Positions 2,116 to 36,115 are shown, numbered from the stretch's first letter. The stretch is DNA of 64,000 nucleotides from Nitrosopumilus sp. (GCA_965214775.1 OZ243974.1:1952001-2016000); one strand, 5' to 3'. The notes: a model not told the origin generated them from the letters alone. Made by a program: numbers and translations.

Positions 2116-2117
2116 CG

Positions 2118-12296: not shown

Positions 12297-12403
12297 ATCT
12301 CAAGCTTTACTGTAAAAAACACGTTTCCTGTCGCGATAACGTCGCTGCTGTCGGTGGTAGCCCTCAATATCGTGCCCGAGATCGTGTCGATGATGGGGGT
12401 GGC

Positions 12404-15223: not shown

Positions 15224-15309
15224 CAGTCCGCCGGCCCATGCGGTGCTGGCAGACTGACAGACAAACGGGCGGGATTTCCCCCTTAAAACGTGCCATGGCA
15301 TTTTTTTCC

Positions 15310-17155: not shown

Positions 17156-19506
17156 GGGCCGTGCCGGCAGCGCTGTTTCTACTGCTGCTGGCATCTGCCC
17201 TCCCGCTGCTGGCATCCTTTCTTGCCGAAGACGCCTTTGCCCACCCGTACGGAAGATGCAGGCCGTGGATAACGGGATCCTTGCACTATGACGTCAGGGA
17301 CGCCGACGGGAACCCGAGAAGCAACCCCAACGACACGCTGTATCCCGGCGATGCCGTAAGGTATGAGTTTAGCTATGGATGGAGCGGCAACTGCTACCGC
17401 GAAAGGACGTATCCGGTGACTGACAGCGGCGCCATAAGCGTATACGGATCGCACGGCTCCCACGGGTCGCGCGGCGGCAACGCGGAGGCGCTCATAGCCA
17501 GGACCAACGACTGCCACGGAGGGGGAAGCCGCGGTGCCGCAGGATACGGGGGCGATGACTCGTGGGACCGCGACAGCGCAAAGACCGGCTGCGGCGACAT
17601 CAAATACAAGATCTCAGGCAAGGAAAAGCACCGGCACCGGTGCGGCGATGGCTACTGCACGTTCTACATCACGCGCTGGGCACACGACACGCTGCATCCT
17701 GCCACGGTTGCCCCCGTAGTCGAGGTCCAGATGTACGAGCACATCATAAGGGATCCCTACGGATACATGGCAGCAAACGGAGACCATACAAACTATGTAT
17801 GGGATCCCATAGCAATTGAGCATGCGGCCGACTTTACGTACAAGAACCAGAGGGAGGGGACGATAACCTTTGACTATTCACGGGCGTTCTCCCCGCTCGT
17901 CGAGGAGGGGGGATACGAGTGCGACCGGAGGTGCGTCCGATCCCTGGCGGTGGCGGCAGGCTCGCCGCTTGATGCCACAGGAATAGGATTCCTTCCGTAC
18001 CAGCATGCGTCAGAGAACGGGGGAGGGATGTACGCGTATGCGTCGCCGGGGCTTGACGTGATGGGCAACAGGGAGATACGGTATGACGTCCGCGTCCTCA
18101 ACGAGGGGCGCCTGATAAACACGCACCACAACCAGACAGTCCAGCTGATAGTCAGCTATGATCCGGTGTTTGACAAATATGAGTATCCGGTGCTGGCAGA
18201 CGGGCGCAAGTACGCGTATGATGACAGGCAGGGACTCGTGATGCTGTACTCGGGCTCCGTCGGCAGCGGCCCGGACGACGACGGGCTGCTTCACGGGGAC
18301 AGGCGGAGCAGGATAAACGCGTTTTACCCCAACACCACCATGCACTCCCTCTTTGACGGCATCCCAGACGTAGCCATTGATCCCGATCTTCTTGAGTGGG
18401 ATTCCATAGATCACGTGAGAGGGACGGATCCCGACGGGTGGCTCAGCCTGGATGCAGGACACGCGATGTTCGAGGACGAGGGGTATGGCATACTGAGGTT
18501 CTCCCAGGAGATCTCTGGCATCGTGCACCGGGACTCTAACAACCTCAACTTCCGCCACAATGCAACCACACACAACGTGATAGCGTCTGACAGGTGGGCA
18601 GGCCATGATTCTTATGCCAACTTCAACTATACCTACCAGTACCCGCACACGCCGTTTGCGGCATGGTACAACGTCACGGCCTTTGACGCGTCGGGGGCAG
18701 CCGACGACGGCGTGACGCCCATAACGGTATCTGCCACCGTCGCAAACCTGACGCACGCAGGCTCCGTGCCGCAGCACATACCGGCAGGACAGGGCAGGGT
18801 CACCGTAATGCTGGATGCGTACGTCCATGACAAGGCGCTTCACGACACCGGCGATGAGGCCTTTGCTGCTGCCGTACTTGACGAGACGTACGACATGGAG
18901 AACGGCGCAGGCGGCACCGGCGACGTATCGATGTGGCTAAAAAAGACGGGACTGTCATTGGATGAGAACTACATCCCTGGAAACGACATACTCGGACAGC
19001 CGCGGTACCTCTTGCTGGGGCTCGAGTCGGAGATGGACACCGTCATAGAGATACCCGGCAGGGAGATCAGCCGCATACTTCACACGGAGTTTGACGTCGA
19101 TTACGTCGAGGAGATGACCGTGTCCGAGATTCCGCTGTCCATGTCGCGTTCTGTCAGCGACGGTCTCCGGACGCAGCTGGTCTCCGTGTCTGTCCCGGAA
19201 TGGTTCGGGTACATAAGCTCCATCGAGATGAACGGGGAGAGCGTCGACTTTGGGACCGACTGCGTCTACGAGTGCGTCTTTACTGACATCGATGGCGGAA
19301 ACGTCACGGTATACAACGTCTGGGGCGGGACTGCCGTGGGGACGCTCAACGCCTCGGACATTCTGGTGCATGCCACCCCAGAGGTCGTCTTTGAGGAAAG
19401 CCACGATCTCATCTGGTATGTCGTGGCCGTAGGCATCATGGGGTTTGTGGCGTATTCTGCCCTGAGGCATTTCTGGAAGAGGACGCTTGTATCTTCGTCG
19501 CAGTGA
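17152..19506 (+). CDS. Large membrane-anchored surface protein
   Basis: Signal peptide, Cys/His/Gly-rich N-terminal domain, C-terminal TM LIWYVVAVGIMGFVAYSAL. Confidence 0.7.
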   Translation: MRAVPAALFLLLLASALPLLASFLAEDAFAHPYGRCRPWITGSLHYDVRDADGNPRSNPNDTLYPGDAVRYEFSYGWSGNCYRERTYPVTDSGAISVYGSHGSHGSRGGNAEALIARTNDCHGGGSRGAAGYGGDDSWDRDSAKTGCGDIKYKISGKEKHRHRCGDGYCTFYITRWAHDTLHPATVAPVVEVQMYEHIIRDPYGYMAANGDHTNYVWDPIAIEHAADFTYKNQREGTITFDYSRAFSPLVEEGGYECDRRCVRSLAVAAGSPLDATGIGFLPYQHASENGGGMYAYASPGLDVMGNREIRYDVRVLNEGRLINTHHNQTVQLIVSYDPVFDKYEYPVLADGRKYAYDDRQGLVMLYSGSVGSGPDDDGLLHGDRRSRINAFYPNTTMHSLFDGIPDVAIDPDLLEWDSIDHVRGTDPDGWLSLDAGHAMFEDEGYGILRFSQEISGIVHRDSNNLNFRHNATTHNVIASDRWAGHDSYANFNYTYQYPHTPFAAWYNVTAFDASGAADDGVTPITVSATVANLTHAGSVPQHIPAGQGRVTVMLDAYVHDKALHDTGDEAFAAAVLDETYDMENGAGGTGDVSMWLKKTGLSLDENYIPGNDILGQPRYLLLGLESEMDTVIEIPGREISRILHTEFDVDYVEEMTVSEIPLSMSRSVSDGLRTQLVSVSVPEWFGYISSIEMNGESVDFGTDCVYECVFTDIDGGNVTVYNVWGGTAVGTLNASDILVHATPEVVFEESHDLIWYVVAVGIMGFVAYSALRHFWKRTLVSSSQ

Positions 19507-19578
19507 CCGCATGGCAGGCCGCGCCTAGGGGCCTGACTCCCTTCCGGCTTAATATGGAAACGCATTCCATTAGGTATC

Positions 19579-19654
19579 AGCGGGGTGGGGAAGCCAGGCC
19601 AATCCCGGCGGGTTCATTGCCCGCAGACCGGCAGTTCAAATCTGTCCCCCGCTA
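19579..19654 (+). tRNA. tRNA-Met(CAT), archaeal initiator type, with non-canonical anticodon loop
   Basis: Full cloverleaf: acceptor AGCGGGG/CCCCGCT (A1-U72), D stem GGGA/TCCC, anticodon stem GCGGG/CCCGC, loop TT-CAT-TG, T arm GGCAG-TTCAAAT-CTGTC; TATA-like TTAATAT about 25 bp upstream. Confidence 0.9.
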
Positions 19655-19749
19655 TCATAGGTGCCAGCTTCCTACACCTTCCAGCGGGAACCGGCTCCCG
19701 CTGACTTGTAAGTCCCAAAATCCAGCTATGCCTTTAAATTATAAGACTC

Positions 19750-20517
19750 GTGGGCTCATCAGTGAGAACTAGGCTAATTGCTTGCGAGCATGCAAGCACG
19801 ACAATACTTGACGGGGAGACGGTCTGCAGGAAATGCGGCGTAGTCCTCGGCGAGCAGCGCGAGCAGGTGCCTGCCGGCGAGCGTGAGGCTGCCGGGGCAA
19901 AGTCTACTACAAACATCTATGAGAGGCATGTCACAGGCAGCCGGGACATAATTCCGGATACCGACCAGATGAAGTCCCTCCGGCGCTATTCGCACACGAA
20001 CATCTATGACAATGACAGCAGGAAAAAGCTCAGGAACATATCTCGGTTTTCAAACGCATGCGACTCGCTGGGGATCGATGACACCGCTGCAGAGTACGCC
20101 GTAAGGCTGTTCCACGCGGCCCTCAAGCAGAGGGGCGGCGACAGGCGGACAGCCGACGTGGCTGCCTGGTCTATCTACAAGAGCTGCAAGAACCACGGCA
20201 TCCCGATCGACGGCAACGTCATAGCCGACAACGTAAGGCGGCAGTTCGGGCGGATGCGGATAGGCGACATTATGAGCATCGCGTATGACATGATGGACAT
20301 CCCCGTCAAGGACAACCCCGACGGCGTCATGAAGTACCACTTTCGGCTGGTCCTCAAGAGGCTGACAAAAAAGCTCCCCCGCATGGACGACAGGCAGTAC
20401 TCAAGAAGGCAGGCAGATGCCTGGAACCTGTACAATACGCTATTTCTGTCCGGCTCCTACGACAAGAGGGCAAAGAACGCAGTATGCAAGGCCTTTGGAA
20501 TAAGGAGGAACACATGA
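19750..20517 (+). CDS. Transcription initiation factor IIB (TFB)-like protein
   Basis: Zn ribbon CEH..GETVCRKCGVVL; cyclin-fold segment ACDSLGI..AVRLF..VAAWSIYKSCKNHGIP; start codon uncertain. Confidence 0.8.
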   Translation: MGSSVRTRLIACEHASTTILDGETVCRKCGVVLGEQREQVPAGEREAAGAKSTTNIYERHVTGSRDIIPDTDQMKSLRRYSHTNIYDNDSRKKLRNISRFSNACDSLGIDDTAAEYAVRLFHAALKQRGGDRRTADVAAWSIYKSCKNHGIPIDGNVIADNVRRQFGRMRIGDIMSIAYDMMDIPVKDNPDGVMKYHFRLVLKRLTKKLPRMDDRQYSRRQADAWNLYNTLFLSGSYDKRAKNAVCKAFGIRRNT

Positions 20518-21635
20518 AGGCCTCAGAGGAAAGGGTGATGACAAGCCGCATCGAGGAGCCCATATACCAGGCAACCGTCATCATATCATCAAACGTCAGG
20601 CTTCTTGCAAAGGCCATCGCAGAAAAGGGAGTCCCTCCTACCAGGCCGATCCTCGCAAAGCTTGACGGCAGGTACTATCCTGTCGGAAACATAGAGACCG
20701 TCATGGCTGCCATGGAGGCCGGGCTGAAGAGCATTGCATGTTCTGTCATACCCGTAAAGTCAAAGACGGACATGATAAACCTGCACCTGCTGCATACGCG
20801 CTCTAGCACCTACAACCCGGTAAGGTTCACCAGGATGATAAACGAGGCCATAAGTGAGAACGTCGAGATTGACATCGGAAACCTGCCAAACTCGTTTCGG
20901 AGGAGGATCAGTCTTGTCCCCGACGTCGAAAAGCGGCTTGACGACTTTGTGGCGGACATGGGCAGGAAGATGATCGAGGTCCCGTCCATGCTGCACATAG
21001 TGGCCCCCCTCTCCCGCCTTGAGCCCGAGGATCAAAAGGCGGCGCTGAAGATGGTCCTCAACTATACGACGATGCGCAAGCAGGCGTACCCGCCAGACCA
21101 GATAACGCTCAACCAGATCTTCGAGCAGTACCGCTACAAGGACTCTGGAGGAAACGGCGATGATGGTGATGACGGTGACGGCGGGCCCGGTGCCTCCGGG
21201 GGCGATGACAATGCAGGGGAGCCCGGGGCAAATCCTAGGTCAAAGCCGGCGCAGGATCCTGCCGGTGACGATGACGTCGAGATGGATCTTGCAAAGAAAA
21301 GGGGATCTGTCGGCGTCCGGATAAAGCCAAAGTCCGACTCGATAGAGTACCAGTGCAAGTGCAGCAGGAAGATACTCGTGAACCTCAAGAACGGGATGGT
21401 CCAGAGGATGGAGGATAATGGGGCAAACATACTTGCCGTAAACGACGATGAGAACACGTCAGTCTGCTACATGCTCCCGGGAGAGCTGGCATCACAGCTG
21501 GAGCTTGACGTCTCTGACATCATAAACTGCTACCTCATAGGCGGCAAAAAATCCGAAAAGGCCGCCCTGATCACCAAGAGAAAGATCCCAAAGAAGGTGC
21601 AGGCCGAGATCTCAAGGGCGCTGAGGTCCGCCTGA
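20514..21635 (+). CDS. ParB/Srx N-terminal domain protein (divergent)
   Basis: LAKAIAEKGV..PIL..DGRYYPVGN..AAMEAGLKSI..V resembles the ParB-N fold; the canonical GxRR motif is degenerate. Confidence 0.6.
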   Translation: MKASEERVMTSRIEEPIYQATVIISSNVRLLAKAIAEKGVPPTRPILAKLDGRYYPVGNIETVMAAMEAGLKSIACSVIPVKSKTDMINLHLLHTRSSTYNPVRFTRMINEAISENVEIDIGNLPNSFRRRISLVPDVEKRLDDFVADMGRKMIEVPSMLHIVAPLSRLEPEDQKAALKMVLNYTTMRKQAYPPDQITLNQIFEQYRYKDSGGNGDDGDDGDGGPGASGGDDNAGEPGANPRSKPAQDPAGDDDVEMDLAKKRGSVGVRIKPKSDSIEYQCKCSRKILVNLKNGMVQRMEDNGANILAVNDDENTSVCYMLPGELASQLELDVSDIINCYLIGGKKSEKAALITKRKIPKKVQAEISRALRSA

Positions 21636-21721
21636 GCTTGCACGCAGCGTGCCTGTCTGGCAGCCGGCCCGGGTGCGCCGAGGCCGGCATTGGGCTTGCG
21701 TCGCCTGAGTGCTTTGTCGGC

Positions 21722-22285
21722 ATGTCACACGACTGGTACACCGAGCACATATCAAGGAGCGGCAGCATGTACGGCCTGCTGGACATCATGATGAGCCTGA
21801 TGCATGCACGCAACGCGGTTCCAAGGGAGGATCTTGCAAAGGCGGCCTGCTCGGCAGGAATCCGCAAGAATGAGATCTCGCGGTGCAAGAGGCGGGGGCT
21901 GATAGGCAGCGACGGAGCGCACCTGCACGTCACAGGAAAGGGTTACGGACTCTTTGCTGCGGCCAGGATGGGCATACGGCCGCTGTCGCTTCTGATACTG
22001 TGCCATGCCCACGCATATGTCAGGGCCACAGGAATGTACGGCAAGTCAAACGACATGTTCTCAGAGATGTACGGCGTGGTCGTAAAGAACCACGTGTTTT
22101 CCAGCAGGTTCTCTGCCCTGGTCAAGCACGGCTGGATAAGGAAACAGGGGAGGCGCGGCGCGTTCTGGGAGTTCCCGCGCGCCGGGGAGCTGGAAGGCTA
22201 TGCCAGCATACTTGACGGCATACATGCAGCAATGTCGGAGAAAAAGACCATTTTAAGTGACGCGGGGGTTTTCGCGCATGGATGA
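21722..22285 (+). CDS. Hypothetical protein, probable winged-helix DNA-binding protein
   Basis: Two wHTH-like segments (RGLI..LHVTGKG; FSALVKHGWIRK). Confidence 0.5.
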   Translation: MSHDWYTEHISRSGSMYGLLDIMMSLMHARNAVPREDLAKAACSAGIRKNEISRCKRRGLIGSDGAHLHVTGKGYGLFAAARMGIRPLSLLILCHAHAYVRATGMYGKSNDMFSEMYGVVVKNHVFSSRFSALVKHGWIRKQGRRGAFWEFPRAGELEGYASILDGIHAAMSEKKTILSDAGVFAHG

Positions 22286-22958
22286 CTATCTTGCAGTCGC
22301 CGTGGCAGTCATAATGATGGCGCCTCTTGCGTGGTCGGACGTCCGGAGCCGCACCACGTACAATGACATCACGTTATCCATGACGGGGGTCGCCGCATGC
22401 TTTTTCGTCTACGGGTTCCTTACGCGGTATATGCACCAGGATCCCCTGTGGCTGCTACTGACGTTTGCCGGCATCGGCATGGCGGCAGCCATGCTCCTGA
22501 TGTATTTTATGCGCGTCTGCGGGCTCGGGGACGTGGCGGCTGCCGCCATAATCGCCATGATGATCCCGCAGGTCGGCGGGTTTCCAGCCGCGTTTGCGGC
22601 CATATTCTGCTCGTATATTCTGGGGATTGCCTTCACCGTGTCACACAACGTCTGTGCAAACATGTCTGACATGGCGCGCGGCAGAAAGTACTGCCGCTCG
22701 ATGATATACACGCACATCAAGCGCAGGGGGGAACGGTTCTGCTGCAGGCCTGCCTCCCTGTCAAGGATAGGTTCTGTCGGCCACGACGGCGACCTCCTGG
22801 ATGCGGATGGCGGCGACCTGTTTGTGGACGAGAAGGTAAAGGGAATGCCCGTTACCAAGAGCGTACCGATGGTCACCATGATGTTTGCGTCCCTGGTCGG
22901 CGTCTCACTCCTCTCGCTGTTTGGAGGCATAGGCGGGTATCTTGACTTCCTTAAATAG
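22278..22958 (+). CDS. Prepilin peptidase (A24, PibD/FlaK-like)
   Basis: Multi-TM protein; WSDVRSR first catalytic Asp, GLGD second Asp, C-terminal VPM motif. Confidence 0.85.
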   Translation: MDDYLAVAVAVIMMAPLAWSDVRSRTTYNDITLSMTGVAACFFVYGFLTRYMHQDPLWLLLTFAGIGMAAAMLLMYFMRVCGLGDVAAAAIIAMMIPQVGGFPAAFAAIFCSYILGIAFTVSHNVCANMSDMARGRKYCRSMIYTHIKRRGERFCCRPASLSRIGSVGHDGDLLDADGGDLFVDEKVKGMPVTKSVPMVTMMFASLVGVSLLSLFGGIGGYLDFLK

Positions 22959-22977
22959 AACCCGGCATTACACTGTG

Positions 22978-23895
22978 ATGATTCCAATCGGACTTGACAT
23001 CGGAACAGGATACGTCAAGATTTCCGGAAACGGAAGGAAGAGAAAGTTTCCATCGCTGTATTCGTGCATGTACTCTGACGGGCGCGGCGACATCGAGGAC
23101 CAAAAGGCGCCGGCAAGAAAGAGGGTGCTCGTAGAGTCAACCGGCATGGATGCGCTTGCCATGGGTTCTGCGCGGAACGGCGTCATGATACGCCCCGTAA
23201 AGCACGGCGTCCCGCACAACGATTCGGGCTTTGCCGCACTCGTGAGGGAGGCAGTCCGGTCGATAGGGGTAAGCGACCCCTCGCAGGCAGTCATTGCCGC
23301 AGGCGTGACTTATGACGCGCAGGACAAGGTTCCGCAGATAAGCCGCATAATAACCAAGACGCTGTCCCCCGGCGGGCTGCGCATAATCCCGCAGGCCTAC
23401 GGCACGCTGATGTCATGCAAGACTAGGAGGGGCACCGTCGTGAACATAGGCCACGGCACTACCGAAATAATAGCCATACGCGACGGCATGCACGAGGGCA
23501 CGTCCATACCCAAGGCCGTAAGCTTTGTCACTGACCAGCTTGACAAGCGCCGGGGCTCCTACGTCGACTACAAGTCGCTCCTGTCGCGCGACGAGGCCAT
23601 GACCGCGCGGCTGGTAAAGCTGCTGGCAGAGCACATCGCCGACGAGGTCTCAAGGTTCGGCGCCTCGACTGAGGGGATAATACTTGCGGGCGGCGGCTCG
23701 CTCCTGCCAGGAATGCGCGAGAACCTGGAGGCCATGCTCGGTGTCACGATCACGGTTCCCGACGATCCCGTATACAGCAATGCTGCAGGCCTTGAGATGA
23801 TTGCAGCCAAGAGATCCGGCAGGGCCGCCGCTCCGGAGGACAGGGCAGAGACTGCGCCTGCGGCCGCCGGAAACCCGCCCGGGCCTTCTGCCTGA
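22978..23895 (+). CDS. ParM/StbA-like actin-fold ATPase
   Basis: IGLDIGTGYVK (phosphate 1), PQAYG, VVNIGHGTTE (phosphate 2), ILAGGGS (adenosine), NAAG. Confidence 0.85.
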   Translation: MIPIGLDIGTGYVKISGNGRKRKFPSLYSCMYSDGRGDIEDQKAPARKRVLVESTGMDALAMGSARNGVMIRPVKHGVPHNDSGFAALVREAVRSIGVSDPSQAVIAAGVTYDAQDKVPQISRIITKTLSPGGLRIIPQAYGTLMSCKTRRGTVVNIGHGTTEIIAIRDGMHEGTSIPKAVSFVTDQLDKRRGSYVDYKSLLSRDEAMTARLVKLLAEHIADEVSRFGASTEGIILAGGGSLLPGMRENLEAMLGVTITVPDDPVYSNAAGLEMIAAKRSGRAAAPEDRAETAPAAAGNPPGPSA

Positions 23896-23968
23896 CTGCC
23901 GTGGTGCATATCTGGCGCACGCAGGCCGCACGCCGATGTCTTAATAGCGGAATGATATCCTGTATTGT

Positions 23969-24907
23969 ATGTCGGCTGTGGTGACTGGTATCGTCGTTGT
24001 TCTGGTAGTCGCAGGCATAGCCTGGTTCGGGGTCAATCATGCAGGTGATGATATGACGCCGGAGATGCATGAGGATGCCGGTTATGTGCCGCCCGTCACA
24101 ATAGCCGTCGATTCACCGCCGACGAGGAATTATGCGGCAGTCGCCGGCGCGGCAAGGCAGGCGGCCGACGCATGGAACTCGGCCAATCCAGGCGGGGTAT
24201 ACTTCAGTGTCGGCGCAGCTGATGACACCGACATAGTGATTGTGCTGACAGACAAGATAGCCGGCGATACCGTGGGTCTGTACCAGTCTGGACGCTGGGG
24301 CGAGCCTGCCACCATAACCGTAGAGAGTGGAAGGCCGTGGTGTGACGGCGTGTTCCGCACGTACTCGGAGGGAATGATGGCAGATACGATAGCCCACGAG
24401 CTGGGACACCACCTGGGTCTCGGCCATACCGCCGACGAGTCGCACCTGATGTACGGCATGCATGATCCGCCCCCCGTACACGCGCATTCATTTGACGATC
24501 TCGGGTACTCCATGCCGCAGCTTGCGGGGCACCAGCAGTTTGGCGCGCTGGTGCCGCTGGCAGCCGAGATGGATGCCGCCGAGTCGGAGATGGCCGTGCT
24601 CGACGCCGGCATGGACGATGCCATCGGGCGCATAGATCGTCTTGCGGCAGAGCACGAGAGTCTTGCGGTTGTGTATGACGAGATTGCCGGCCGGTACGCG
24701 TCGCTTGCAGGCGACGGCGGCGCACACCTGCAGGCCCAGGCCCTTCATGACAGGCTTGAGGAGATTCTTGTGGAGATACGGGCAGTCGAGGACGGCATGG
24801 AGGGGGCCGTGGCAGACTATGACGACATGGAGGCCAGGTACAACGGGGCCGTCGGCAGGTACAACGCCGCTGCCGAAAAGTACAACTGCGCGGCAGGCGG
24901 GACGTAG
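23969..24907 (+). CDS. Membrane-anchored matrixin-like zinc metalloprotease with C-terminal coiled coil
   Basis: HELGHHLGLGH zinc motif plus Met-turn HLMY; N-terminal TM. Confidence 0.85.
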   Translation: MSAVVTGIVVVLVVAGIAWFGVNHAGDDMTPEMHEDAGYVPPVTIAVDSPPTRNYAAVAGAARQAADAWNSANPGGVYFSVGAADDTDIVIVLTDKIAGDTVGLYQSGRWGEPATITVESGRPWCDGVFRTYSEGMMADTIAHELGHHLGLGHTADESHLMYGMHDPPPVHAHSFDDLGYSMPQLAGHQQFGALVPLAAEMDAAESEMAVLDAGMDDAIGRIDRLAAEHESLAVVYDEIAGRYASLAGDGGAHLQAQALHDRLEEILVEIRAVEDGMEGAVADYDDMEARYNGAVGRYNAAAEKYNCAAGGT

Positions 24908-25218
24908 CGAATGGATGCCGGGATTGAACCCATGGAGTGGAGGGAGAGTGGCGGCGGGAGTACGACATGCTGGAGCGCGACTTTGACCGGTTCCTGGACT
25001 ATTTTGCCAGAAACAAGCAGTGCTGGTGCGACATGGACGGGTGCAAGACGTGCGAGGGGTCTGTGGTGCTGGTGTCGTTAGGAGGTGTTTGAGAATGCTT
25101 TATGTGTGAGGACGTAAATGCGAGCTGCCACAGTGCATTGGATCTGAAAGACGCAGACATGACGCAGAAGAGACGTAGAACCGGCACGCGTGATGACAGA
25201 TATCGTCTGCATCACACA

Positions 25219-26062
25219 CTTTCCACAACGATAACGTTGTGGCCCCATTGAAGCTGACAGTAATGAATTTGAGGCAGAGATGGATATGATCTTTCCACAA
25301 CGATAACGTTGTGGCCCCATTGAAGCCAGAGTATGAATCCAAAACCAGAAAGAAGGTACCAACTTTCCACAACGATAACGTTGTGGCCCCATTGAAGCGT
25401 CGTACATAGTTCCTCATAAGTAGGATCTAAGCGATCTTTCCACAACGATAACGTTGTGGCCCCATTGAAGCATGCGCCGTTACTCTGAGACCCAATTGCG
25501 CCGAGGTGCACTTTCCACAACGATAACGTTGTGGCCCCATTGAAGCTCGACATAGCAGGATTATCTTCTTCCTCATTCCCAGATCTTTCCACAACGATAA
25601 CGTTGTGGCCCCATTGAAGCTCTGGCAGGTGAGGCGACCAAAAAACAATTGGACGCGCTTTCCACAACGATAACGTTGTGGCCCCATTGAAGCCCACGAC
25701 CTGATGGTCAAGTTTTCCTCAGGAGGATCCTTTCCACAACGATAACGTTGTGGCCCCATTGAAGCTCAGTCCCCACCGCAGATGCTTTCCGAACGCCCAT
25801 TCTCTTTCCACAACGATAACGTTGTGGCCCCATTGAAGCCTGAGGCAGGCAGACAGACCATAATGCGTGACCTGATTCTTTCCACAACGATAACGTTGTG
25901 GCCCCATTGAAGCCAGCATGATTCGCACGTCCTGCTTGCAATATGCAGAAAGCTTTCCACAACGATAACGTTGTGGCCCCATTGAAGCTGTTCTATGCCA
26001 TGAGGGAGTAGTTACCAATACCCCATCTTTCCGCGACGTTATCGCTGCGGCCCCATTGAAGC
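25219..26062 (+). CRISPR. CRISPR array, 12 repeats and 11 spacers, no cas genes in the window
   Basis: 36-bp repeat CTTTCCACAACGATAACGTTGTGGCCCCATTGAAGC present 11 times identically plus a degenerate last copy (26027-26062); unique spacers of 36-39 bp; 8-bp hairpin; ATTGAAGC 3' end typical of type I-G (I-U) repeats. Confidence 0.97.
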
Positions 26063-26265
26063 GGGCCTCACCGGCGTTTTTATGCTAATCATACATCATA
26101 CATCATGGGCAGCGATGTTGGTAATGATGATGCATGTAACGGCATATGCGGAAAGCTGGATCGGACAAATGCCCTCCTGCAGGATATTCTGACAGAGCTC
26201 AAAAAAATGAATTATCCCCATCCCCCGTAAAGCCTTATCTTGCTGGAATTTCAGTATTACATACC

Positions 26266-26712
26266 ATGGATTGTATCGTGCGCAAAAGTTCCGTCAAAAG
26301 ACAGCCGTTTCCTGATTTTATTGCAATCATGACCACAAACACAATGAGCCAACTCAGTATTTCAAGTGGCGACTATGTTGTTTTTGAGAATACCCTGATC
26401 AACGAATCTGACAGGTCACAACCGCCAAAGACCCTGAAAATAAAAGCTCCCGTGATAAACGGCAGTGATGAAGTGGTAGAAATGGAGGATCTGAAGGATG
26501 GTGAGGTGGCCATGGATCAAACGTGCCGGGCAGCCATATCAGTCAAGGAGGGCGATTCAGTCAAGGTCACAATATCCATCACGGCTGTCTTTGCTATAGG
26601 CGATCCCAACCCACTCTATTGGATCCCAATCATTGCATTTGGCGTGTGGACTGCATGGAGCATACTGACATCATCCACATACAAGACCGCATCATCCGAA
26701 CTGTCTTTCTAG
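26266..26712 (+). CDS. Small protein with CDC48-N-like double-psi barrel and C-terminal TM
   Basis: TMSQLSISSGDYV and AMDQTCRAAISVKEGDSVKV match the duplicated GD-box pattern. Confidence 0.5.
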   Translation: MDCIVRKSSVKRQPFPDFIAIMTTNTMSQLSISSGDYVVFENTLINESDRSQPPKTLKIKAPVINGSDEVVEMEDLKDGEVAMDQTCRAAISVKEGDSVKVTISITAVFAIGDPNPLYWIPIIAFGVWTAWSILTSSTYKTASSELSF

Positions 26713-27555
26713 TTTTTCGATTCTGAGGGGCCTTGTGCCGTGTGGCAGCTCTGCAAGCCGTATGGGATTGTCCGCAGAGTATTTTTCAGACAGTATCCTT
26801 CCGTATTCTTTGCTGTTTCTGGCAGCGCTATGCGCGAATTCAGACGCATCGCATGGTGGTGGTGGTTGCGCCTCCTGCCAGCCTGCATCATCGGCCAGCA
26901 TGCCGCACAGGGTTTCCAGCATGTCTTTCTGTGACAGCGCCCTGAACCTGCGGCCTGTGGCATGCACCTCTGCAAGGCTGATCACCTGGTTGTCAATACA
27001 CAGCACCCCCCCAGTCCCGACATATGCATAGACTGGGGAGAACGACTCTCCGTTTTTTAGTGTGAGGCCGGCGTCGATTTCGGCCAGCATGTAGTGGTTG
27101 CCGCGTCCCTCACTTGCATCCATCACCTCGATCTGCTTCTCATGCAGCACGTTGACCCACACGTCAACTGTCGTACCTGGGGATCTCGTAATTGTTGCGG
27201 GTACTGACCCGTACGAAGCAAAGAACGGGGCATACACTACATCGCAGTCATTCAGGGTTGCCCGTAACACCGGCATCGGGTCAGACTCTGAGAATTTGGA
27301 TTTTAGCTGGGCAGGACAGGCATTGGAACCATACCCCACCACCATGTATCTGTCCTGTTTTGAGGGGGCCGCAGCAATATCACTGTGGAAGTTCAAAGAC
27401 TCCTCTATCTTTTTACCGGCTGTTTCGTGTATGGGCACGATGTGGTTCCCGCAAAATACAAACGACGTGTCAGGACGCCTTCCTGGGTATGATTCGGGCA
27501 CGTGCCTTGGCGCCGGCCCAAATTCTTCCACCGGGGTTTCTCCGTTACCTGACAT
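26692..27555 (-). CDS. Hypothetical protein with gamma-glutamylcyclotransferase-like fold
   Basis: VVGYGSN motif and late MDASEG motif. Confidence 0.6.
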   Translation of the reverse strand: MSGNGETPVEEFGPAPRHVPESYPGRRPDTSFVFCGNHIVPIHETAGKKIEESLNFHSDIAAAPSKQDRYMVVGYGSNACPAQLKSKFSESDPMPVLRATLNDCDVVYAPFFASYGSVPATITRSPGTTVDVWVNVLHEKQIEVMDASEGRGNHYMLAEIDAGLTLKNGESFSPVYAYVGTGGVLCIDNQVISLAEVHATGRRFRALSQKDMLETLCGMLADDAGWQEAQPPPPCDASEFAHSAARNSKEYGRILSEKYSADNPIRLAELPHGTRPLRIEKLERQFG

Positions 27556-27753
27556 TATGCTGTGTCATGGTGTCTGCGTATTTAAGATGCGGTGATTTAC
27601 GGCATGAATGCCCGGCTCCCAGAAAGCTGAGGACCTGATTTTTTGCTTATTACCGGTGGATCCGTAATACGTGTGTTGAGCACGATGATGTATTTCGCGG
27701 CACTGGCTGCGCTCTTGGCAATGATGATCCCCCTTCCCTTCTTTATGGCACAC

Positions 27754-28126
27754 GCCGACGGGCTGATGGGCAGGCACTCGCCGGAGCTGCGCCGGCTGTT
27801 TGAGACCAAGCTGCGCAACGTCCTGTTCGGATACAGGGATACGCAGAACGAACCGCTGAAAGCTCTTGTCAGGAGGATGTGCAATGCCCTGCCGGGCCTG
27901 TTTGCGTTCCTAGAGTACGAGGGCGTCGAGCCCACCAACAATTCCGCAGAGCGGGCGCTGCGCCCCGTCGTACTGCAGGACAAGATAAGCGGCCAGATCA
28001 AGGGCGGCCTGGTCTGGATGGGCAGGTACGGATGGCTCAACACATGCACCTCGACATGGAAGCTGCAGGGCAAGTCCATCGTAGTCGAGGTAGCCAAAAT
28101 AATCTAGGGGGTAGGTGACCTCATAC
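27754..28126 (+). mobile_element. IS66 3' remnant (same family as 10661-12296)
   Basis: Near-identical to the transposase 3' end, ends in TAGGTGACCTCATAC, and is fused in frame to an unrelated hydrophobic N-terminus (27643). Confidence 0.9.
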
Positions 28127-28393
28127 GATCTGAGCGTCGACGGGTTCGAGTGCATCAGGTCGCAGGAGATGTATCCAGTCCTGAAGCGGAGGTTCGACGT
28201 AGAGATCGAGGTTCCGGGCGTCTCATTCGCAAGGAGATTCGTCGAGTCGCCCTTCGGCCAGAACTACAATCCCGACAACCCTGCAGACAGGGCGTGGCTG
28301 GACAGGATCCTTGAGATGGATGAAAAGCATATGAAGTCACACGGCTTGAAACCCGAGAGCGTCTTCCTGATTCTCAAAGGGATCGGCGGCTGA
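28127..28393 (+). pseudogene. C-terminal fragment of a truncated gene (possibly SAM-dependent methyltransferase)
   Basis: Protein-like frame begins right at the IS66 end with no native start; family call is tentative. Confidence 0.4.
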
Positions 28394-28660
28394 AAGTACC
28401 ACGGATCCGGGCAGAGACGGCATGGCCACCAGACTGGCAGGATCATGTGTCGGCCTTTGCAGATATACAGTGAAATCCCCTCTAGTTAGTTTCCAACCGG
28501 CGCCGAACTAGCAGGATAGCGTACCGGTAACAGGTCGGGCTCGGGAAGTTCAGGCGTGAGATTTGCCATCTTGGAGGCCCCCTTGGGCAGCACCCACAGC
28601 TAGCAGGAAGATCTGGAAAAATCACAACACATAAAGATCCCATGATCTGCCTTCCGGGTA

Positions 28661-29301
28661 TTGGTTGGGGATCCTGACATTACGGACGTGGACTGGAGAA
28701 TTCCCGACGTGATCCGCCTGTTTGAGCACATGAAGACAAGGATAGAGAGTGTTGAAAAAGACAACGGGCAGCTGCAAAAAGACAACGAGCAGCTGCAAAA
28801 AGACAACGGGCAGCTGCAAAAAGACAAAGAACAGCAACAAAAGGAAATCGAGCAGCTGCAAAAAGACAACGAGCAGCTAAGGGCGCTGCTAGGGCGACAG
28901 CCGACGACGGCCGGATCCGGGCCGGCGGTGGACTCTGTTCCAAAGGAGGCCCGCAAAGAGCCGAATTCGCGCGGCTATAACGTGCGCAAGTTCCACGACT
29001 TTCCGCATCCTGAAAAGGCGGCCCCCAAAAAGAGGCCAGAGACTAAGACAGTCACCCGCACATGCACGGCAGACGCCGAGTTCTGCCCCGACTGCGGCGA
29101 CAAGCTCTCTGAGGGGTGCGAAAGGTACGCAAGGAAATCCAAGGACCTGATCGACGGCAAGTGGACCGAGACCGAGTGGGACGTCACCAAGCGTTACTGC
29201 AAGTCATGCAAGAAAAAGCGCTCCGCCCCCGTGCCCGGCGTGCTGCCCGGCGAGCATTACGGCACGCGCGTCATCGGGATAATCGTGTTTCTTCGCTGCA
29301 T
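28661..29301 (+). pseudogene. N-terminal fragment of a second IS66-type transposase
   Basis: QLQKDN heptad repeats, CPDC..CKSC zinc finger, PG..YG motif; cut by the IS5 left end. Confidence 0.75.
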
Positions 29302-30456
29302 AGAGTTGATTCGAAATTAGCAAGTTTTGATCAAATGGGCACATAATGTACACCAACCCGATCCAAATGCAGGTAAAATGTACATAATTCATGAAGTTAT
29401 TTGATAAATTGTCAAAAAACCCCCGGACATTCAGGATGTTTGCCGGCATGACTGCCCCCGAATTTGATTTGTTGTATGCAAAGGTGGCAAAAAAACACCC
29501 AAAGATGGACAAAAAGAGGCTGCTTTCTGCCAAAAAAGACCGCAAGCGTGACATCGGTGCAGGACGTCCGACTGCCCTGAACCTAAAGGAGAGTCTTCTG
29601 CTGTCCCTGTTCTACTACAGGACGTACGTCACGCAGGACGTGGCATCTGCCATGTTCGGCATTGGACAGGCATCAGTCTCGCGCACAATTGACAGGATTG
29701 CGTCGGTTCTCAAAAAGTACATTCGATCCCCGAAAAGATCTATTGGGGCACCAAGAGAATATCCTCAGTAGAGGAGCTAATGGACGTATTACCGAAACTT
29801 GTCTGCCTGACAGACGCCTCAGAGCAAAAGATATGCAGGCCCAAGAGAAAGGACATGGAGAAATCGCACTATTCAGGCAAGGCAGGCACGCACACAGTCA
29901 AGATCCAGTACACCACCAACATCCACGGACTCATAGTGCACAAGACGCCCCACTCTCCGGGACGCGTAAACGACATCACGATGTACCAGATGAGGCATCC
30001 CACGTTCCGGTACGACCAAAGAAAGGAGAAAGAGAAAGAGAAAAAGTGCCCCGGCGGCGGGGATGGTGATGCGCCACAACAACAACCGCAGAGCATAAAG
30101 CTGCGGCACTACATGGATCGCGGATACCAGGGAGCACAGTTAGTGGATGCAGGCACGGACGTCATACTCCCTATCAAGAAAAAACCGGGCTGTAAGCTCA
30201 CCGATGCGGAAAAAGAGTACAACATCACGCACTCAAAGATACGCGTGTACGTGGAGAACGTCATACGCAGGGTCAAAACATACAGGATCATGGGCGACCG
30301 GTACCGAAACCCACTCAAAAAGTACGACCTTGCCAACAGTATCGTGTGCGGACTGGTCAACGATAGGGCGTTGGCCAGAATCGCTGCTGCGGCCTGAGTG
30401 GCGGCAGCAGGACAACTGCGGACGGGGCGCTCGATTTCTAATTTCGGATCACCTCT
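29302..30456 (+). mobile_element. IS5-family (ISL2-like) element with transposase split over two frames (29391-29771, 29780-30397)
   Basis: 19-bp imperfect TIRs AGAGTTGATTCGAAATTAG / CTAATTTCGGATCACCTCT; HTH plus DDE motifs (DASE, YSGK, DRGYQG, RVYVEN). Confidence 0.9.
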
Positions 30457-30889
30457 CTGAGAAGATCTGCGAGAATCTGCGCGTCGACCTTGTCTGTCTT
30501 TTTCTTTGATGTCGCGATGGCCCTGGTCTCAAAGGGGTTTGAGAGGATCACGTCCCTTTTGAGGGTGTCTGAGATGAACCTGAACAGCCCGTACCATACG
30601 GAGGAGGACTCCATGACGCACTTTGCGTTCTCCGGAATCCCTGCAAATATCTCTCTTATCTCGTCGTCATTGTTGCTGACTCTTGTGTTGCTGAGCACCT
30701 TGCCGCCCTTGTCCATCACCGCGACTTGGATGAACTCCTTGTGCACGTCCAGGCCGACATACTGCTGCTACTTCTGCTTCTGCTGTTGTATGGTCTTTGA
30801 TTTCACACGCATCCTCTTTTTTGCGGTAATCTGTTTGTTTGCGTTGCCGTTTATTTTGGCACCATCTGAATTTTGTTTTTGAGACACAT
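30457..30889 (-). pseudogene. IS110 transposase N-terminal fragment
   Basis: YVGLDVHK..CVMESS..KTDKVDA DEDD motifs; in-frame TAG at 30768-30770; truncated by the IS5 end. Confidence 0.85.
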
Positions 30890-30929
30890 ATGAACACGGG
30901 TTAACACCCGGGCCCGTAGTAGTGTCGGT

Positions 30930-31047
30930 GTGGATCAACCGCTGTATAACCATGCGCCTTGCGCGCTGACATATGAATGCGGTAATTCTGAGCTGCAGTG
31001 TTCGTGCACCACGGCGTGCTGATAGATGTGTGCAGCCTCTGATCCAC
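30930..31047 (+). ncRNA. Predicted IS110 bridge RNA (target-binding and donor-binding loops)
   Basis: Outer stem GTGGATCA/TGATCCAC encloses two stem-internal loop-hairpin units whose loop sequences match the element's flanks and ends. Confidence 0.8.
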
Positions 31048-31070
31048 CAAAAAAAGGAAAATGAGAAAAG

Positions 31071-32204
31071 ATGCAATACAGCATAGGAATAGACATTGGA
31101 AAGAGAAAATGCGTAGCGTGCATTATGGACGACAACAAGAGGATCCTAGAAGAGACGGCATACGAGAACACCTACAAGGAGGCAGACTTGTTTGCCAAGA
31201 AGGCAAAGCTCAATTACGGTGGGAAGAACTGCCAGGCCGTCTGCGAGTCCACGGGCAACATGTGGCTCAAGACCTACGAGGCATTCGAGTCTGCAGGAAT
31301 ACCCATCAAGCTTGCCAACACCCACAGGATGCGGATAATCTCTGACATGGACGTAAAGACTGATCCTATCGACGCAAGAAAGCTTGCAAACGCCCTGAGG
31401 GCTGGAATGGTTCCCGAGTGTTACGTGGCACCGCCAGAACTCAGGAGCGTCAGGGAGCTGATGCGCTGCAGGATCCGTCTTGTGCAGGACAGGACGGCCG
31501 TGGTCAACCAGATCCACAGCCTCCTGGACAGGCATGACTGGAAGATCAACTCGTCGCACATGTACTCCAACAAGGGACTCAAGCAGCTGTTCGCCCTGAA
31601 TCTTGGCGATCCAAACGATGATGTGGTTCTCGGCGTGTATGCCAGAAGGGTCAGGCATCTTGCAGAGGAGATTGCAAGCATCGAGACAAGGATAGCGGCG
31701 CAGGCCGGCGCCAGCGAGTATGCGAGGATCCTGATGAGCATTCCGGGAATTGACTCGTTTACGGCCATGCTGCCGGTATCTGAGATCGGAGATATTGCCA
31801 GATTCAAGACCCCGAACAAACTTGTTGCGTGGTTTGGCATGTGTCCTACAGTCCACCAGTCCGGCGACAGGGAGGAGTACCACGGCAAAATGAGAAAGAC
31901 ATCCAACCGCAGGTGCAACTGGGCAATACTCCAGGCTGCGCGGACGGCTGCCATATACGATGAGAGAATGGGAAGGATCCATGCAAGATCCAAGAAGAGG
32001 AACAGTGCAAGGCCCATGGTGGCCAGGACACACGTGGCAGCCAAGATGGTCAGGATCATCTGGTCCATGCTTATGACAAAGACGCCATACTCCGGACACG
32101 ATCCCAAGACATACAAACTCAAGCTGGCCAGGGCAGAGGCCGCTGCTGCTGCTGCTGCTACTGCTACTGCAGCACCCAAGGTCAGGGAGAAAACAACCAA
32201 GTAA
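31071..32204 (+). CDS. IS110 recombinase/transposase
   Basis: GIDIGK, CESTG, KTDPIDA (DEDD RuvC), SIPGI, EIGDIARF, HQSG catalytic Ser. Confidence 0.95.
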   Translation: MQYSIGIDIGKRKCVACIMDDNKRILEETAYENTYKEADLFAKKAKLNYGGKNCQAVCESTGNMWLKTYEAFESAGIPIKLANTHRMRIISDMDVKTDPIDARKLANALRAGMVPECYVAPPELRSVRELMRCRIRLVQDRTAVVNQIHSLLDRHDWKINSSHMYSNKGLKQLFALNLGDPNDDVVLGVYARRVRHLAEEIASIETRIAAQAGASEYARILMSIPGIDSFTAMLPVSEIGDIARFKTPNKLVAWFGMCPTVHQSGDREEYHGKMRKTSNRRCNWAILQAARTAAIYDERMGRIHARSKKRNSARPMVARTHVAAKMVRIIWSMLMTKTPYSGHDPKTYKLKLARAEAAAAAAATATAAPKVREKTTK

Positions 32205-32515: not shown

Positions 32516-35500
32516 CTATTCCACGGAGATCCTGATCTTCTGTCCGTCAATGTCGCTGTCCTGGTATTGCTTGCAGGTCTGCTCAAAGCTGATTTTTTTG
32601 ACTCTGACCAAGAACGCCAGGTCCCGGGACTTTTCCCGAATCATCCCAAGGGATTCCCCGTCCAGGCCCAGGATTGACGCGACATTCAGGACGTCAGTCG
32701 GGTTGTATCCTCTCTCTTTTCTTAGCGCCTGCAGCCTTCTTGCGACATCCTTTACCAGTCCCTTTGCCACCATCTCCCTGTTTCTTGCAGTCGGGATAAA
32801 GACGGTATAACTGTCCCTGTGGGACACTGCATAGCCTTCTTGGGCATCAAGACCGGCTACAAAGTCCCCCGAATCAAGCGAAATCTTTTTGCCGTCCACA
32901 TAAAAGTCGTATTTTGAGCTTCCTTGCAGCAAGGAGTCCACGATCTCCTCATGGTCGGTTTCCACAAACTTTGCGGCAAGCTGTCCCATGTGCCGCTTTG
33001 CCTTTGGCCCGATCTTCTTCCTGTCTAGCTCCAGTACAGATCTTACCGGCAGTCCCAGCCTTTTGAACTCCAGGATTTGCCCCAGTCCCGGATCCTTTTG
33101 CGTCGTCTCAAAGACGCGGATCCTCTCGACGTTGAGCTGGGATTGCAGCAGCTCTGAGAGCGGTTCGAGCTTTTGCTTTTGCCCCTTTCTCACGCAGATC
33201 AAGGCCTCGTTTAGCGGCCATCTTCGCTTTAGCCTTCCCTTCATTCGGGCAGCCGAGGAGACGGATACTATGTCATTCATGATGTCAAACGACTCCTCGA
33301 CCTCCTCGTCGACCAGTTCCCGGTCGTAGGCAGGCCAGCTGCCAAGCAGTATGCTGCTCTTTGGTCCTTCAAAGACTGCCTGGTAGAGGTACTCGCTTGT
33401 AAACGGGCAGAACGGATGAATCAGGACGTCCAGCGTCCTGAGGACGCTGCTCAAGACGGCATAGATCGCAAGCCTCCTGTCCTTTTTTCCGTCATCCTCG
33501 TCCCAGAGTTCCCCCTTGGTAATCGGGACGTAAACCTGGCTCAGACTGTTTATGATATAGTCCTCAAGGGCCTTTGCGGCCTCGTGGAACTTGCAGGACT
33601 GGTTTCTGTCCGTGACTCTGCGGATCAGCCCCTGGAGCTTGGACAGCAGCCAGACATCCGGCGGCGAGAGCAGGTTGTTCATCCTTGCCCATTTGATCGT
33701 CTTCCTTGATGCGTCAAAACCGTCGTACCGGCTGTTTTGCCCAAAGTAGAGATGCAGGTTAAACAGCGTGCTGACTACCTTGTACGGCCTTGACATCAGC
33801 TCGTCAGTGCTGAAGCTGAGCGGCTCGATGGGACTTGCCTTCCACACAAAGTAGAATCTGACCAGGTCTGCAGGGTATCTTTCCAGCAGCTCTGCTCCTT
33901 CCAGCACGTTTCCCTTGCTCTTGCTCATCTTCCTGCCCTTTTCGTCCAGGACGTGTCCCTGGAACAGGAATGACCTGTATGGCGGAGTCGGGCCGTCACT
34001 TAGGATCACGTTTTCAACGAGCAGCGTGTATGCCCATCCCCTGGTCTGATCGATTCCCTCAGTCAGAAACGGTGCGGGAATCTCGTCACGATACTCCCTG
34101 TCACTTAGCGACGAGAACGGCGCCGAGCCGCTGTTGTGCCAGGTATCCAAAACGTACTCTTCCCTCTTTGTGTCCGTGCCGTTGCATTTCTTGCATCTTA
34201 CCGTGATGTTGTCAATCCACGGCCTGTGCAGCTCAAAGTCATGGCCGTCAGGCAGGTTCTCAGCCGCATCGATGATCTCCTGCCTTGAGAACAGCCAGTT
34301 TCTCTCCCCGCACCCCTTGCATGTCCATACGGGAAGCGGGCACCCCCAGATCCTCTCCCTTGATATGCACCACGGATGCCTCTCCCTGACTATTCCAAGG
34401 AACCTGTTTTTTGGCTGCTCAAAAAAGTATTCCACGCTTTTGGCCGCGTCGACTGCCTTGTCATCCAGCCTGTCCAGCTTGTAAAACCAGCCCTTTCTTG
34501 CAAGCCATACGATCGGATGGCCGGACCTCCAACACAGCGGATACTTGTGCCTGATCGTGCCAATCCTGACCAGGGCGTTTTTTTCCTCCAGGTCCTGGAT
34601 GATGACCCTGTCTGCGTCCCTTACAAACATGCCCTGGTACCTCTCCCCTGCCTGCGGTGTGAATCTCACCTGATCATCGATCGGGCAGAAGATCTTGACG
34701 CCTCTCTTGTTTGCGATCCTGATGTCCTCCTCGCCGTTTGCAGGAGAGAGATGGACCAGTCCGCTGCCCGTGCTTGCATCGACAAACGGCTCTGAGACTG
34801 CGACGTGGAAGTTGTCTGCCCTTGCGCATTCGGCCAAGGCGGGAATCTCGTCAAGCAGCGGGTGCACGTATTTTTTTCCCTCAAGCTCGGATCCCTTGAC
34901 GGTCTTGAGGACGTCCCATCTCTCGATTTTTACCTCTGCCATGAAATCCTCCAGCCTGGTTTTGCCCAGAACCCATGTCTCTGTCCCCACTTTGACGTAG
35001 GCATAGTCCTCCTCGGGCTGCAGTCCCACCATTGCGTCAGTCACCAGCGTAAATGGCATCGTGGTCCATACAATCAGGTACGCATCCTCATCGGCCAGCC
35101 TTGCCTTGTAGAATAGTGACGGGTCCCTGACTTCCTCGTACCCCTGGTTGACTTCGGCATGGCTGAGGGAGGTCTGGCAGCTAGGACAGTACGCGACGAC
35201 TGTAAAGTCTTCCTCCAAGATCCCGCTCTCATGCGCCTTTTTGAGGACTTGCCATTCCCGCTCAATGAACTCGTCTCTAAACGTCCAGTATGCCTTGTCG
35301 TGGTTAAGCGACATTCCCAGCTTCTCATCGACGTCAACCCAGTCCTTGTTGTATTTCTCGACGACCTTTTTGCATTCGGAGACTATTCTCTTGATTCCAA
35401 ACTGCCTGACTGCCTCGGTCTTGCCGCCGGTCACCCCCAGCTCCTTTTCAGCCTGCAGTTCCACAGGGAGTCCCTGGGCGTCCCATCCGCCGTTAAACTC

Positions 35501-35728: not shown

Positions 35729-36115
35729 CGGATCTTGGTGTTGCAGCGGCAAATTTAAACTTCTAAAAGACTGCCACAGACGCAGAATCGTAACTGATCG
35801 GGCTCTGGAAGCTGTTTCTGATTTTAGGCACAAATTCTGTTGTTTGAACGGCCCTTTTTGGTGGCAAAATTCACACCCGAGCTTCAGAATCACGAACTGT
35901 TACTATTTTTTAGGAATCGCCTGATGAAGAGAAGTTGTTGTCAAAACCACGCCTGAGCTTCAAAATCACAAGCTGTTACTGCAAGAGAGTTTTTGGCAAG
36001 TTCTTGTTTTTCTACAGGATGATTTCTCCAGTATCTGGCAGGTTCATCTTTCCAAGCCTCAAGGAATTCCGCAGATCAAACAAATCTGAATTGGCTTGCC
36101 ATTCAAATCACTCAA

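Follow-up and report, generated by a model that had tools for sequence, protein, structure and literature searches.

The stretch analysed here, referred to as the window, comprises 64,000 nt of the archaeon Nitrosopumilus sp. (GCA_965214775.1 OZ243974.1:1952001-2016000; G000:C1:1952001-2016000 in our numbering) and belongs to a genome assembled as one contig of 2,833,656 bases with 99.9% completeness. It holds a CRISPR array that has no accompanying cas genes and that lies at the right-hand side of an island of foreign composition (Table 1). The repeat copies start at positions 25219, 25291, 25363, 25436, 25511, 25585, 25658, 25730, 25804, 25878, 25953 and 26027, giving a start-to-start period of 72–75 nt. 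Copies 1–11 share the sequence CTTTCCACAACGATAACGTTGTGGCCCCATTGAAGC, while the twelfth (26027–26062) carries six differences, none of them outside the stem and loop. Between the copies lie 11 spacers of 36–39 nt, no two of which are alike. The locus hence combines direct repeats within the 23–50 nt range, a regular period and unique spacers of like length, and the succession of 11 identical repeats and one divergent last copy is the pattern expected from serial acquisition. An initial description made from the DNA alone (the sequence-only reading) had reported 11 repeats plus a degenerate one, 11 spacers and no cas gene in the window. The array is confirmed with exact coordinates, and neither Pfam searches of the window's open reading frames (ORFs; 36 + 16) nor tblastn with 18 type I-G proteins detected a cas gene inside the window. 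A genome-wide search for further arrays of the same repeat, as proposed in that description, led back to this array only: allowing up to three mismatches, the repeat was matched 11 times, 11/11 in the array, and its 12-nt tail CCCCATTGAAGC occurs in the genome solely at the array's 12 copies.

Table 1. Features of the window, with positions counted from its first nucleotide
Feature	Position	Strand	Description
Island backbone	1..24907	+	Read as an integrated conjugative-plasmid-like element; extends ~6.7 kb left of the window
IS66-family transposase	10746..12284	+	Within the island backbone; Pfam DDE_Tnp_IS66, E 4e-38
HerA/VirB4/TrwB-like ATPase	12404-15223	+	Pfam, PHROGs
tRNA-Met gene	19579..19654	+	ARAGORN; inside the island, between backbone genes
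Actin/ParM-like protein	22942-23895	+	Pfam, PHROGs
M10-like metallopeptidase	23969-24907	+	Pfam, PHROGs
CRISPR leader	25050..25218	+	169 nt; shares homology with the leaders that precede cas-linked I-G arrays in this archaeal family
T/A-rich box GCTTTATGTG	25097..25106	+	Same position in five family leaders; block GGAGG.G.TTGA.AA...TTAT
CRISPR array	25219..26062	+	Type I-G; 11 identical repeats of 36 nt and a degenerate terminal one, with 11 unique spacers
TTG	26118..26120	+	Directly 5′ of the protospacer; fits the TTN protospacer adjacent motif of type I-G (PMC9638904)
Protospacer	26121..26157	+	Target of a match from genome G250, where a related element's cas-less mini-array carries it as spacer 2
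188-aa ORF	26146..26712	+	Sub-threshold CDC48_N match only; start overlaps the protospacer
287-aa ORF	26692..27555	-	Without a family in Pfam or PHROGs; only unnamed clusters as Atlas neighbours
Insertion sequence (IS) remnants and copies	27643..32204	+	IS66 fragments, DDE_Tnp_4/IS5-like, IS110 (Pfam); between the array and a host core gene
Isoleucyl-tRNA synthetase (IleRS)	32516..35893	-	Host core gene, 72–77% identical in 5/5 congeners; outer limit of the island's right end

The repeat folds into an 8-bp hairpin at its positions 5–24 (–11.2 kcal/mol), followed by CCCC (positions 25–28) and an 8-nt handle ATTGAAGC (positions 29–36). This geometry agrees with that described for the type I-G system of Thioalkalivibrio sulfidiphilus, whose repeats likewise measure 36 nt and carry a central hairpin, and in which Csb2 cuts 4 nt 3′ of the hairpin base to leave an 8-nt 5′ handle (PMC9638904). 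Scanning genome contigs for two CCCCATTGAAGC tails at array spacing yielded 122 loci, drawn from an estimated 1900 stretches, in a wide range of phyla, both bacterial and archaeal; a common frame, (N)TTTCC-stem-loop-stem-GGCCCCATTGAAGC, runs through their consensus repeats. Across 96 other distinct consensus repeats from all loci fetched, the eight stem pairs were paired in 698/768 cells, compared with 238–279/768 when the partner was shifted by 1–2 columns. According to NCBIfam, I-G genes (Cas3g, Cas8g1/Csx17, Csb1/Cas7g, Csb2, Cas4g/Cas1g) adjoin the look-alike array in 6/10 loci, and none were found in the available flanks of the other 4/10. The nearest repeat in these collection scans, with five mismatches and the same ATAA loop, resides on a metagenomic contig of 59% GC next to tblastn matches for Cas3g, Csb1, Csb2 and Cas4/Cas1. 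A degenerate repeat pattern retrieved 0 stretches from either the genome-contig or the viral-contig collection, 0/400 other genomes of the class contained the repeat with up to three mismatches, and Rfam returned only sub-threshold matches to CRISPR-DR16 (19–25 bits vs a gathering score of 35).

Relatives of the host point the same way. Searched as DNA, the array found related arrays in 23/400 other genomes of the family and 12/98 of the genus, the latter comprising three genomes with a single weak match and nine with several, six of which were inspected (G160, G186, G215, G304, G305 and G357; G172, G240 and G317 were left out). Their repeats differ from the present one at 4–7 positions, the nearest overall (four mismatches) belonging to G250, a genome from another genus of the family. 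In 9/10 large-array family genomes fetched, I-G cas genes adjoin the array; the stretch examined of one large-array genome, G292, consists almost wholly of array. Repeat geometry, the neighbourhood of look-alike repeats and the leader homology described below mark the array as a genuine member of type I-G, as the sequence-only reading (type I-G, or I-U) had proposed. Type I-G is common around this organism and absent from it. One family genome contains a very large type I-G array, with at least 529 repeats over ~40 kb (G236:C1:2940001-2992000; L180-L182).

The leader upstream of the first repeat was compared with those of chromosomal, cas-linked I-G arrays and of two further cas-less arrays (mini-arrays), one in G250 and one in G357, a member of the host's own genus. 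It aligned to the G250 chromosomal leader with 61% identity over 170 columns, against 34% upstream (local score 43, z 9.7). For the two mini-arrays, identities to the nearest chromosomal leader amounted to 68% (G250 mini vs G250 chromosomal; 36% upstream, local score 101, z 38.7) and 81% (G357 mini vs G304 chromosomal; 51% upstream, local score 232, z 81), and for each of the three pairs 0/200 mononucleotide shuffles matched the observed score. All three mini-arrays possess a full leader, and its alignment with cas-linked family leaders spans the whole interval between the stop codon of cas2 and repeat 1. In the present array, leader homology ends exactly at the point where cas2 would end; in G357, the last codons of cas2 are kept upstream of the leader. 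Each mini-array leader is nearest to a different chromosomal I-G leader. The T/A-rich box of the leader may represent an archaeal TATA box. An earlier idea that the leader was missing, raised by the absence of a CTCG[CA][AG]A motif carried by 30/53 I-G leaders, was dropped once family-specific leaders had been aligned.

The host genome holds a single CRISPR-Cas locus, located outside the window (G000:C1:2420120-2433412) and of type I-B. Its array, the only other one revealed by a k-mer scan (2,420,1xx-2,425,0xx), comprises ~68 repeats that end in ATTGAAAC when read on the minus strand and are unrelated to the repeat studied here. The operon appears complete, with a 591-aa protein lacking NCBIfam or Pfam matches (probably Cas8b) followed by Cas7/Csh2, Cas5b, Cas3, Cas6b, Cas1, Cas2 and Cas4; the Cas1 is the only one in the genome. 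Throughout the host genome, no match was obtained for Csb2 (TIGR02165), Csx17 (TIGR04113) or Csb1 (TIGR02570), and the best hit for Cas3g (TIGR02621) was the I-B Cas3, at 102.6 bits vs a cut-off of 400. As two of the four I-G family searches gave no match in 14 control genomes, further controls were added: the Csb2 model matched 4/5 and 5/5 related genomes (9/10), and the 18 I-G protein queries, taken from four loci, recovered one another's loci by tblastn. In the host genome, the same queries matched only the I-B cas3 and cas1.

The host is consequently without the cognate type I-G machinery for its array. This bears directly on the mechanism first suggested, namely that the element borrows a host I-G Cascade in trans, and on the genome search for cas8g, csb2 and cas3 proposed along with it: Csb2, Cas8g/Csx17, Csb1/Cas7g, Cas3g and Cas4g/Cas1g are all absent, and because the complete genome lacks any I-G gene, no such Cascade can be borrowed in the genome as assembled. 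With type I-B only and no I-G protein at hand, the cassette is most likely idle, i.e. stranded, in its present host.

One way around this would be cross-use by the resident type I-B system, whereby Cas6b would cut the I-G repeat and the I-B Cascade would take up CRISPR RNAs (crRNAs) bearing AUUGAAGC as their handle. That of the host, AUUGAAAC, indeed departs from it at just 1/8 positions, the I-B operon with its Cas6b looks complete, and Csb2 contains a Cas6 domain whose structure is close to that of Cas6b (PMC9638904). Beyond the handle, however, the two repeats are unrelated, and in fold predictions the host repeat does not form the 8-bp hairpin; none of our results points to processing of the array in this cell. 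Cas6 enzymes are, as a rule, repeat-specific. We therefore regard cross-use as highly improbable.

The array's carrier has the make-up of a mobile element. From the left end of the window to 25 kb, and for ~6.7 kb further to the left, GC content is 55–61% (backbone 58%) vs 47% for the genome, and Pfam and PHROGs searches resolve a single plus-strand gene train. Besides the ATPase, actin-like protein and metallopeptidase of Table 1, it encodes an SNase-domain protein, a T2SSF-like membrane protein, a LamG-domain protein and an A24 prepilin peptidase, with a homologue of the TATA-binding protein (TBP) and a bPH-domain protein at its left end. Homologues of the ATPase are patchily spread over 35/230 other family genomes (a count that includes G231, G283 and G132, flagged as unpublished, on which no other result rests) and 10/27 genera, own genus counted; no relative was found among viral contigs. 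Five related genomes, with local GC ranging from 37% to 65%, preserve the arrangement of genes between the ATPase and the actin-like protein; gene order is conserved in G357 and G250 as well. In our reading, the region is an integrated, conjugative-plasmid-like element. Deviant GC, conjugation-type genes and the patchy spread of the ATPase bear out the mobile-element carrier of the sequence-only reading. Its placement of the array at the element's end was partly right, in that the array is near the end and not at it: a site targeted by a sibling array (see below) lies 59 nt beyond the last repeat.

No integrase was recognised in the island, and no direct repeat longer than 15 nt was found between its edges. 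The ~5 kb to the right of the array is IS debris reaching to the host IleRS gene. Taken together with the interruption by an IS66-family element, these features mean that the island boundaries are approximate. Synteny does not define the insertion either, since the genes on its two sides, Cbf5 and IleRS, lie at distant places in 5/5 congeners. In general make-up only, the element resembles the pT26-2 family of mid-sized integrated plasmids (PMC6972569), which also encode numerous membrane proteins along with a HerA/VirB4-like ATPase and a protein with a carbohydrate-binding domain; that family is reported as confined to Thermococcales and Methanococcales (PMC6972569).

Two related elements carry cas-less I-G arrays as well. 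In G357, a mini-array of seven repeats, of which six are identical and the final one is degenerate, is flanked by a TBP gene on one side and bPH/GNAT/M10-peptidase genes on the other, 2 kb downstream of an ATPase homologue (34% identity); the T2SSF-like, 1077-aa, 784-aa, actin-like and SNase proteins have homologues around it; Csb2 had no match in the G357 genome. In G250, an eight-repeat mini-array lies ~4.5 kb from an ATPase homologue and near a homologue of the peptidase (47% identity), and the host possesses Csb2 together with a 149-repeat I-G array elsewhere on the chromosome. No spacers are common to the mini-arrays and the large arrays. An alternative raised beforehand, in which relatives retain an adjacent cas operon that was removed here, was not seen, as both related element-borne arrays are cas-less; the traces found in the relatives are the 3′ remnant of cas2 in G357 and a truncated cas3g-like gene in both related elements.

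The product of this truncated gene (L189:16690-17757 in G357, 355 aa; L192:6011-7258 in G250, 416 aa; 43% identical to each other) resembles Cas3g in two parts only, a piece from the N terminus and the HD region at the C terminus, and has a weak Pfam Cas3_HD hit. A remnant, a decoy and an active nuclease are all conceivable, and the gene has no homologue in the genome of the present host. The element family also has its own TBP homologue, encoded at L142:11336-11956 in the left part of the island and at L189:7509-8018 in G357, in the latter case directly upstream of the mini-array.

Cross-targeting ties two of these elements together. Among the 13 spacers of the two sibling mini-arrays (G357 and G250), a sole match in the host genome was recorded: spacer 2 of the G250 mini-array agrees with the island protospacer at 35/37 positions (E 2.4e-10), i.e. 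1/7 spacers of that array targets this island. This spacer was also the only match that window positions 26063–27600 had in the 400 family genomes. The flanking TTG fits the type I-G protospacer adjacent motif, TTN, cited in the introduction of PMC9638904, making the flank of the island's one known protospacer a further likeness to described I-G systems. A public sequencing run in which the locus is covered at high depth (X1) contains a contig reading G250-type repeat, positions 26121–26157, repeat, along with loose ends at 26121 and 26157. Another G250 spacer, number 7, matches the Cas3g-like gene of its own element at 34/36 positions, where the flank is TGC and not TTN. Other spacer sets revealed nothing comparable: ~66 spacers of the host I-B array, 3195 public I-G and 1762 family I-G spacers produced chance matches of 15–23 nt in the host genome, plus one low-complexity spacer that matched 26–35 nt outside the island. 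Inside the island they had no match, and when blasted against the fetched element loci, including the island, no full-length match.

The G250 mini-array (G250:C2 ~135820-136370, L192, minus strand) is a chimera of four repeats of one variant, three of another, with 2 differences from the host chromosomal repeat, and a degenerate last copy. The same spacer is found on both sides of the variant junction, which suggests recombination between two arrays. This duplicated junction spacer could be taken to favour a different role for element-borne repeats, as counter-defence or integration devices, with repeat RNAs acting as decoys for Csb2 or the I-G Cascade, or with repeats providing homology for recombination with host arrays. 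Repeat-only RNA inhibitors encoded by viruses are reviewed in PMC11656645, and plasmid integration via CRISPR recombination is discussed in PMC9071438. The decoys described to date, however, consist of one repeat and not of an array with a full leader and 11 spacers; the correctly flanked sibling match points to real guiding; and the present host offers no I-G array as a recombination partner. A decoy or integration function is thus very unlikely.

None of the array's own spacers led to a credible target. Spacer searches of the host genome gave nothing of 18 nt or more besides the array itself, upholding the earlier by-eye impression that no spacer matches inside the window. Phage and plasmid collections contained no match, and 300 genomes of the order, 400 of the family and all fetched loci contained no credible one. 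Partial hits at chance level were rejected, i.e. S2 (25327–25362) in a thioredoxin-domain gene of relatives (27–28/36), S3 (25399–25435) in msrA of relatives (25–26/37) and S7 in dnaK (23/36, ungapped); the per-genome E-values of such hits, 0.0007–0.009, were obtained over hundreds of genomes. S2 and S3 could have been taken from homologous thioredoxin-domain or msrA genes elsewhere.

We favour, with a probability of roughly 55%, the reading that the array is a portable type I-G guide cassette for inter-element conflict, carried as cargo by an integrated plasmid-like element and idle in its present host. In such a scheme, the array would be transcribed from its own leader. In an I-G-positive cell, Csb2 would then cut the repeats 4 nt 3′ of the hairpin, releasing crRNAs with the 8-nt 5′ handle AUUGAAGC, which would enter that cell's I-G Cascade and, together with Cas3g, direct the destruction of DNA bearing a protospacer beside 5′-TTN, chiefly in rival elements of the same family. 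With the array, the element would bring every new host a guide library that is portable and cas-less. The inter-element warfare envisaged by the sequence-only reading is directly supported by the sibling spacer aimed at this island beside TTG; for the array's own spacers, no credible target was found.

Several observations weigh against this reading or favour its main rival, in which element-borne arrays are captured fragments without function: a leader-plus-array piece of a host I-G locus, picked up through recombination or imprecise excision, decaying and inactive in any host. The 0/11 spacers with a credible target in the own genome, the collections, the order, the family or the fetched loci belong here, as does the lack of a cognate cas gene in this genome and in G357: two of the three hosts of element-borne arrays are without I-G effectors, which is unexpected for a cassette that depends on host I-G. 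The different nearest chromosomal leader of each mini-array would also fit accidental pick-up from host loci, and the cas2 3′ end upstream of the G357 leader is what a captured fragment should show. The five closest relatives of the island (5/5) have no array in the 8–20 kb examined downstream of the ATPase, so the array is not a constant part of the element; such arrays are recurrent cargo of the element family. Given its IS insertions and the lack of a detectable integrase or att site, the island itself may be decaying, and decay is one reading of orphan arrays offered in PMC9071438.

Against a relic stand three points: three related elements carry such arrays, each with a full leader; a sibling-aimed spacer beside the correct TTN-type flank is hard to obtain by accident; and the 11 repeats are still identical. 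On balance, we consider a functionless relic unlikely, though less so than the other alternatives discussed here, and retain the portable guide cassette as the favoured reading.

A public run from another study (X5) contains a contig whose two flanks are identical to those in the window (2767 nt with 0 other letters) and which joins position 25218 to 25953. It retains only a repeat, spacer 11 and the terminal repeat; spacers 2–9 are present in no contig of the run, and spacer 10 is covered at most partly. This one-spacer contig may reflect a collapsed assembly or a deletion, or it may show the array as it was before ten spacers were added at the leader end. As a tentative extension of the guide-cassette reading, archaeal conjugative-type elements might repeatedly capture leader-plus-array modules from host I-G loci, the libraries growing in trans in I-G-positive hosts and becoming aimed at siblings; the 11-spacer array would then be such a library caught in an I-G-less host, and the one-spacer allele its state before expansion.

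The public runs also bear on whether I-G Cas proteins might be supplied in trans in this very cell by a replicon missing from the one-contig assembly. Run X1 is rich in contigs with similar I-G repeats (118, of which 99 are 90–95% alike), and the one-spacer allele of run X5, if real, would mean that ten spacers were gained or lost very recently. On the other hand, the genome is a single contig of near-full completeness with no I-G gene, the other repeats in X1 may come from other organisms or elements, and the X5 contig may be a collapse or deletion as noted above. A missing replicon is, in our view, the least probable of all the alternatives.

Cas-less arrays on viruses and plasmids, used against related elements, are established (PMC11656645, PMC9071438). 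The closest parallels are the mini-arrays of the Saccharolobus viruses SPV1 and SPV2, which act on related viruses by means of host Cas (PMC11656645), are likewise cas-less arrays on mobile elements and where, as in the present case, the array of a sibling element has a spacer against its relative. They differ from the array described here in having one or two spacers rather than 11 and in residing on viruses rather than on an integrated plasmid-like element; in addition, the present repeat differs from the host's own CRISPR repeat (I-B, unrelated), and 0/11 of its spacers have a credible target. The orphan arrays of plasmids surveyed by Pinilla-Redondo et al. (PMC9071438) share the combination of a typable, cas-less array with a conjugative-type replicon, the suggested roles (use of host Cas in trans, decay, recombination) and inter-plasmid targeting. 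The plasmids surveyed there were free ones and included only 220 from archaea, whereas the present element is integrated in an archaeal chromosome; the term 'I-G' occurs 0 times in the main text of that study. RNA anti-CRISPRs (PMC11656645) are similar in placing CRISPR repeats on mobile elements without cas genes, and dissimilar in consisting of a single repeat instead of a full array with leader and unique spacers. In relation to described I-G arrays, whose look-alike repeats adjoin cas3g, cas8g/csx17, csb1, csb2 and cas4/cas1, the locus stands apart as an array without a system, there being no I-G cas gene beside it or elsewhere in the genome.

The case extends the known pattern of mini-arrays on mobile elements to type I-G and to integrated plasmid-like elements of archaea. 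Less usual are the recurrence in three related elements, each array with a full leader and each leader nearest to a different chromosomal I-G leader, and the finding that 2/3 of these arrays reside in hosts unable to use them. This makes the family a tractable test of weapons effective only in the right host vs debris, with the G250 element and the present island as a concrete pair of targeter and target.

Two ORFs of Table 1 follow the array. For the first (188 aa), no DNA-level homologue was detected in the 400 family genomes, and an Atlas look-up gave no lead; the second, of 287 aa, is on the opposite strand. The region as a whole is very IS-rich, with IS66 fragments and IS5-like, IS110, IS630-like and IS3/rve copies. 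Two IS66-family transposase copies (10746–12284 and 42854–43942) display matching ORF patterns. Further to the right, a second high-GC patch (~60%) at 56050–59978 carries a 1024-aa helicase of the SNF2 family that includes DUF3670, together with an ORF of 285 aa that has no family assignment; an rve-type transposase adjoins the patch, which probably represents a further foreign insert.

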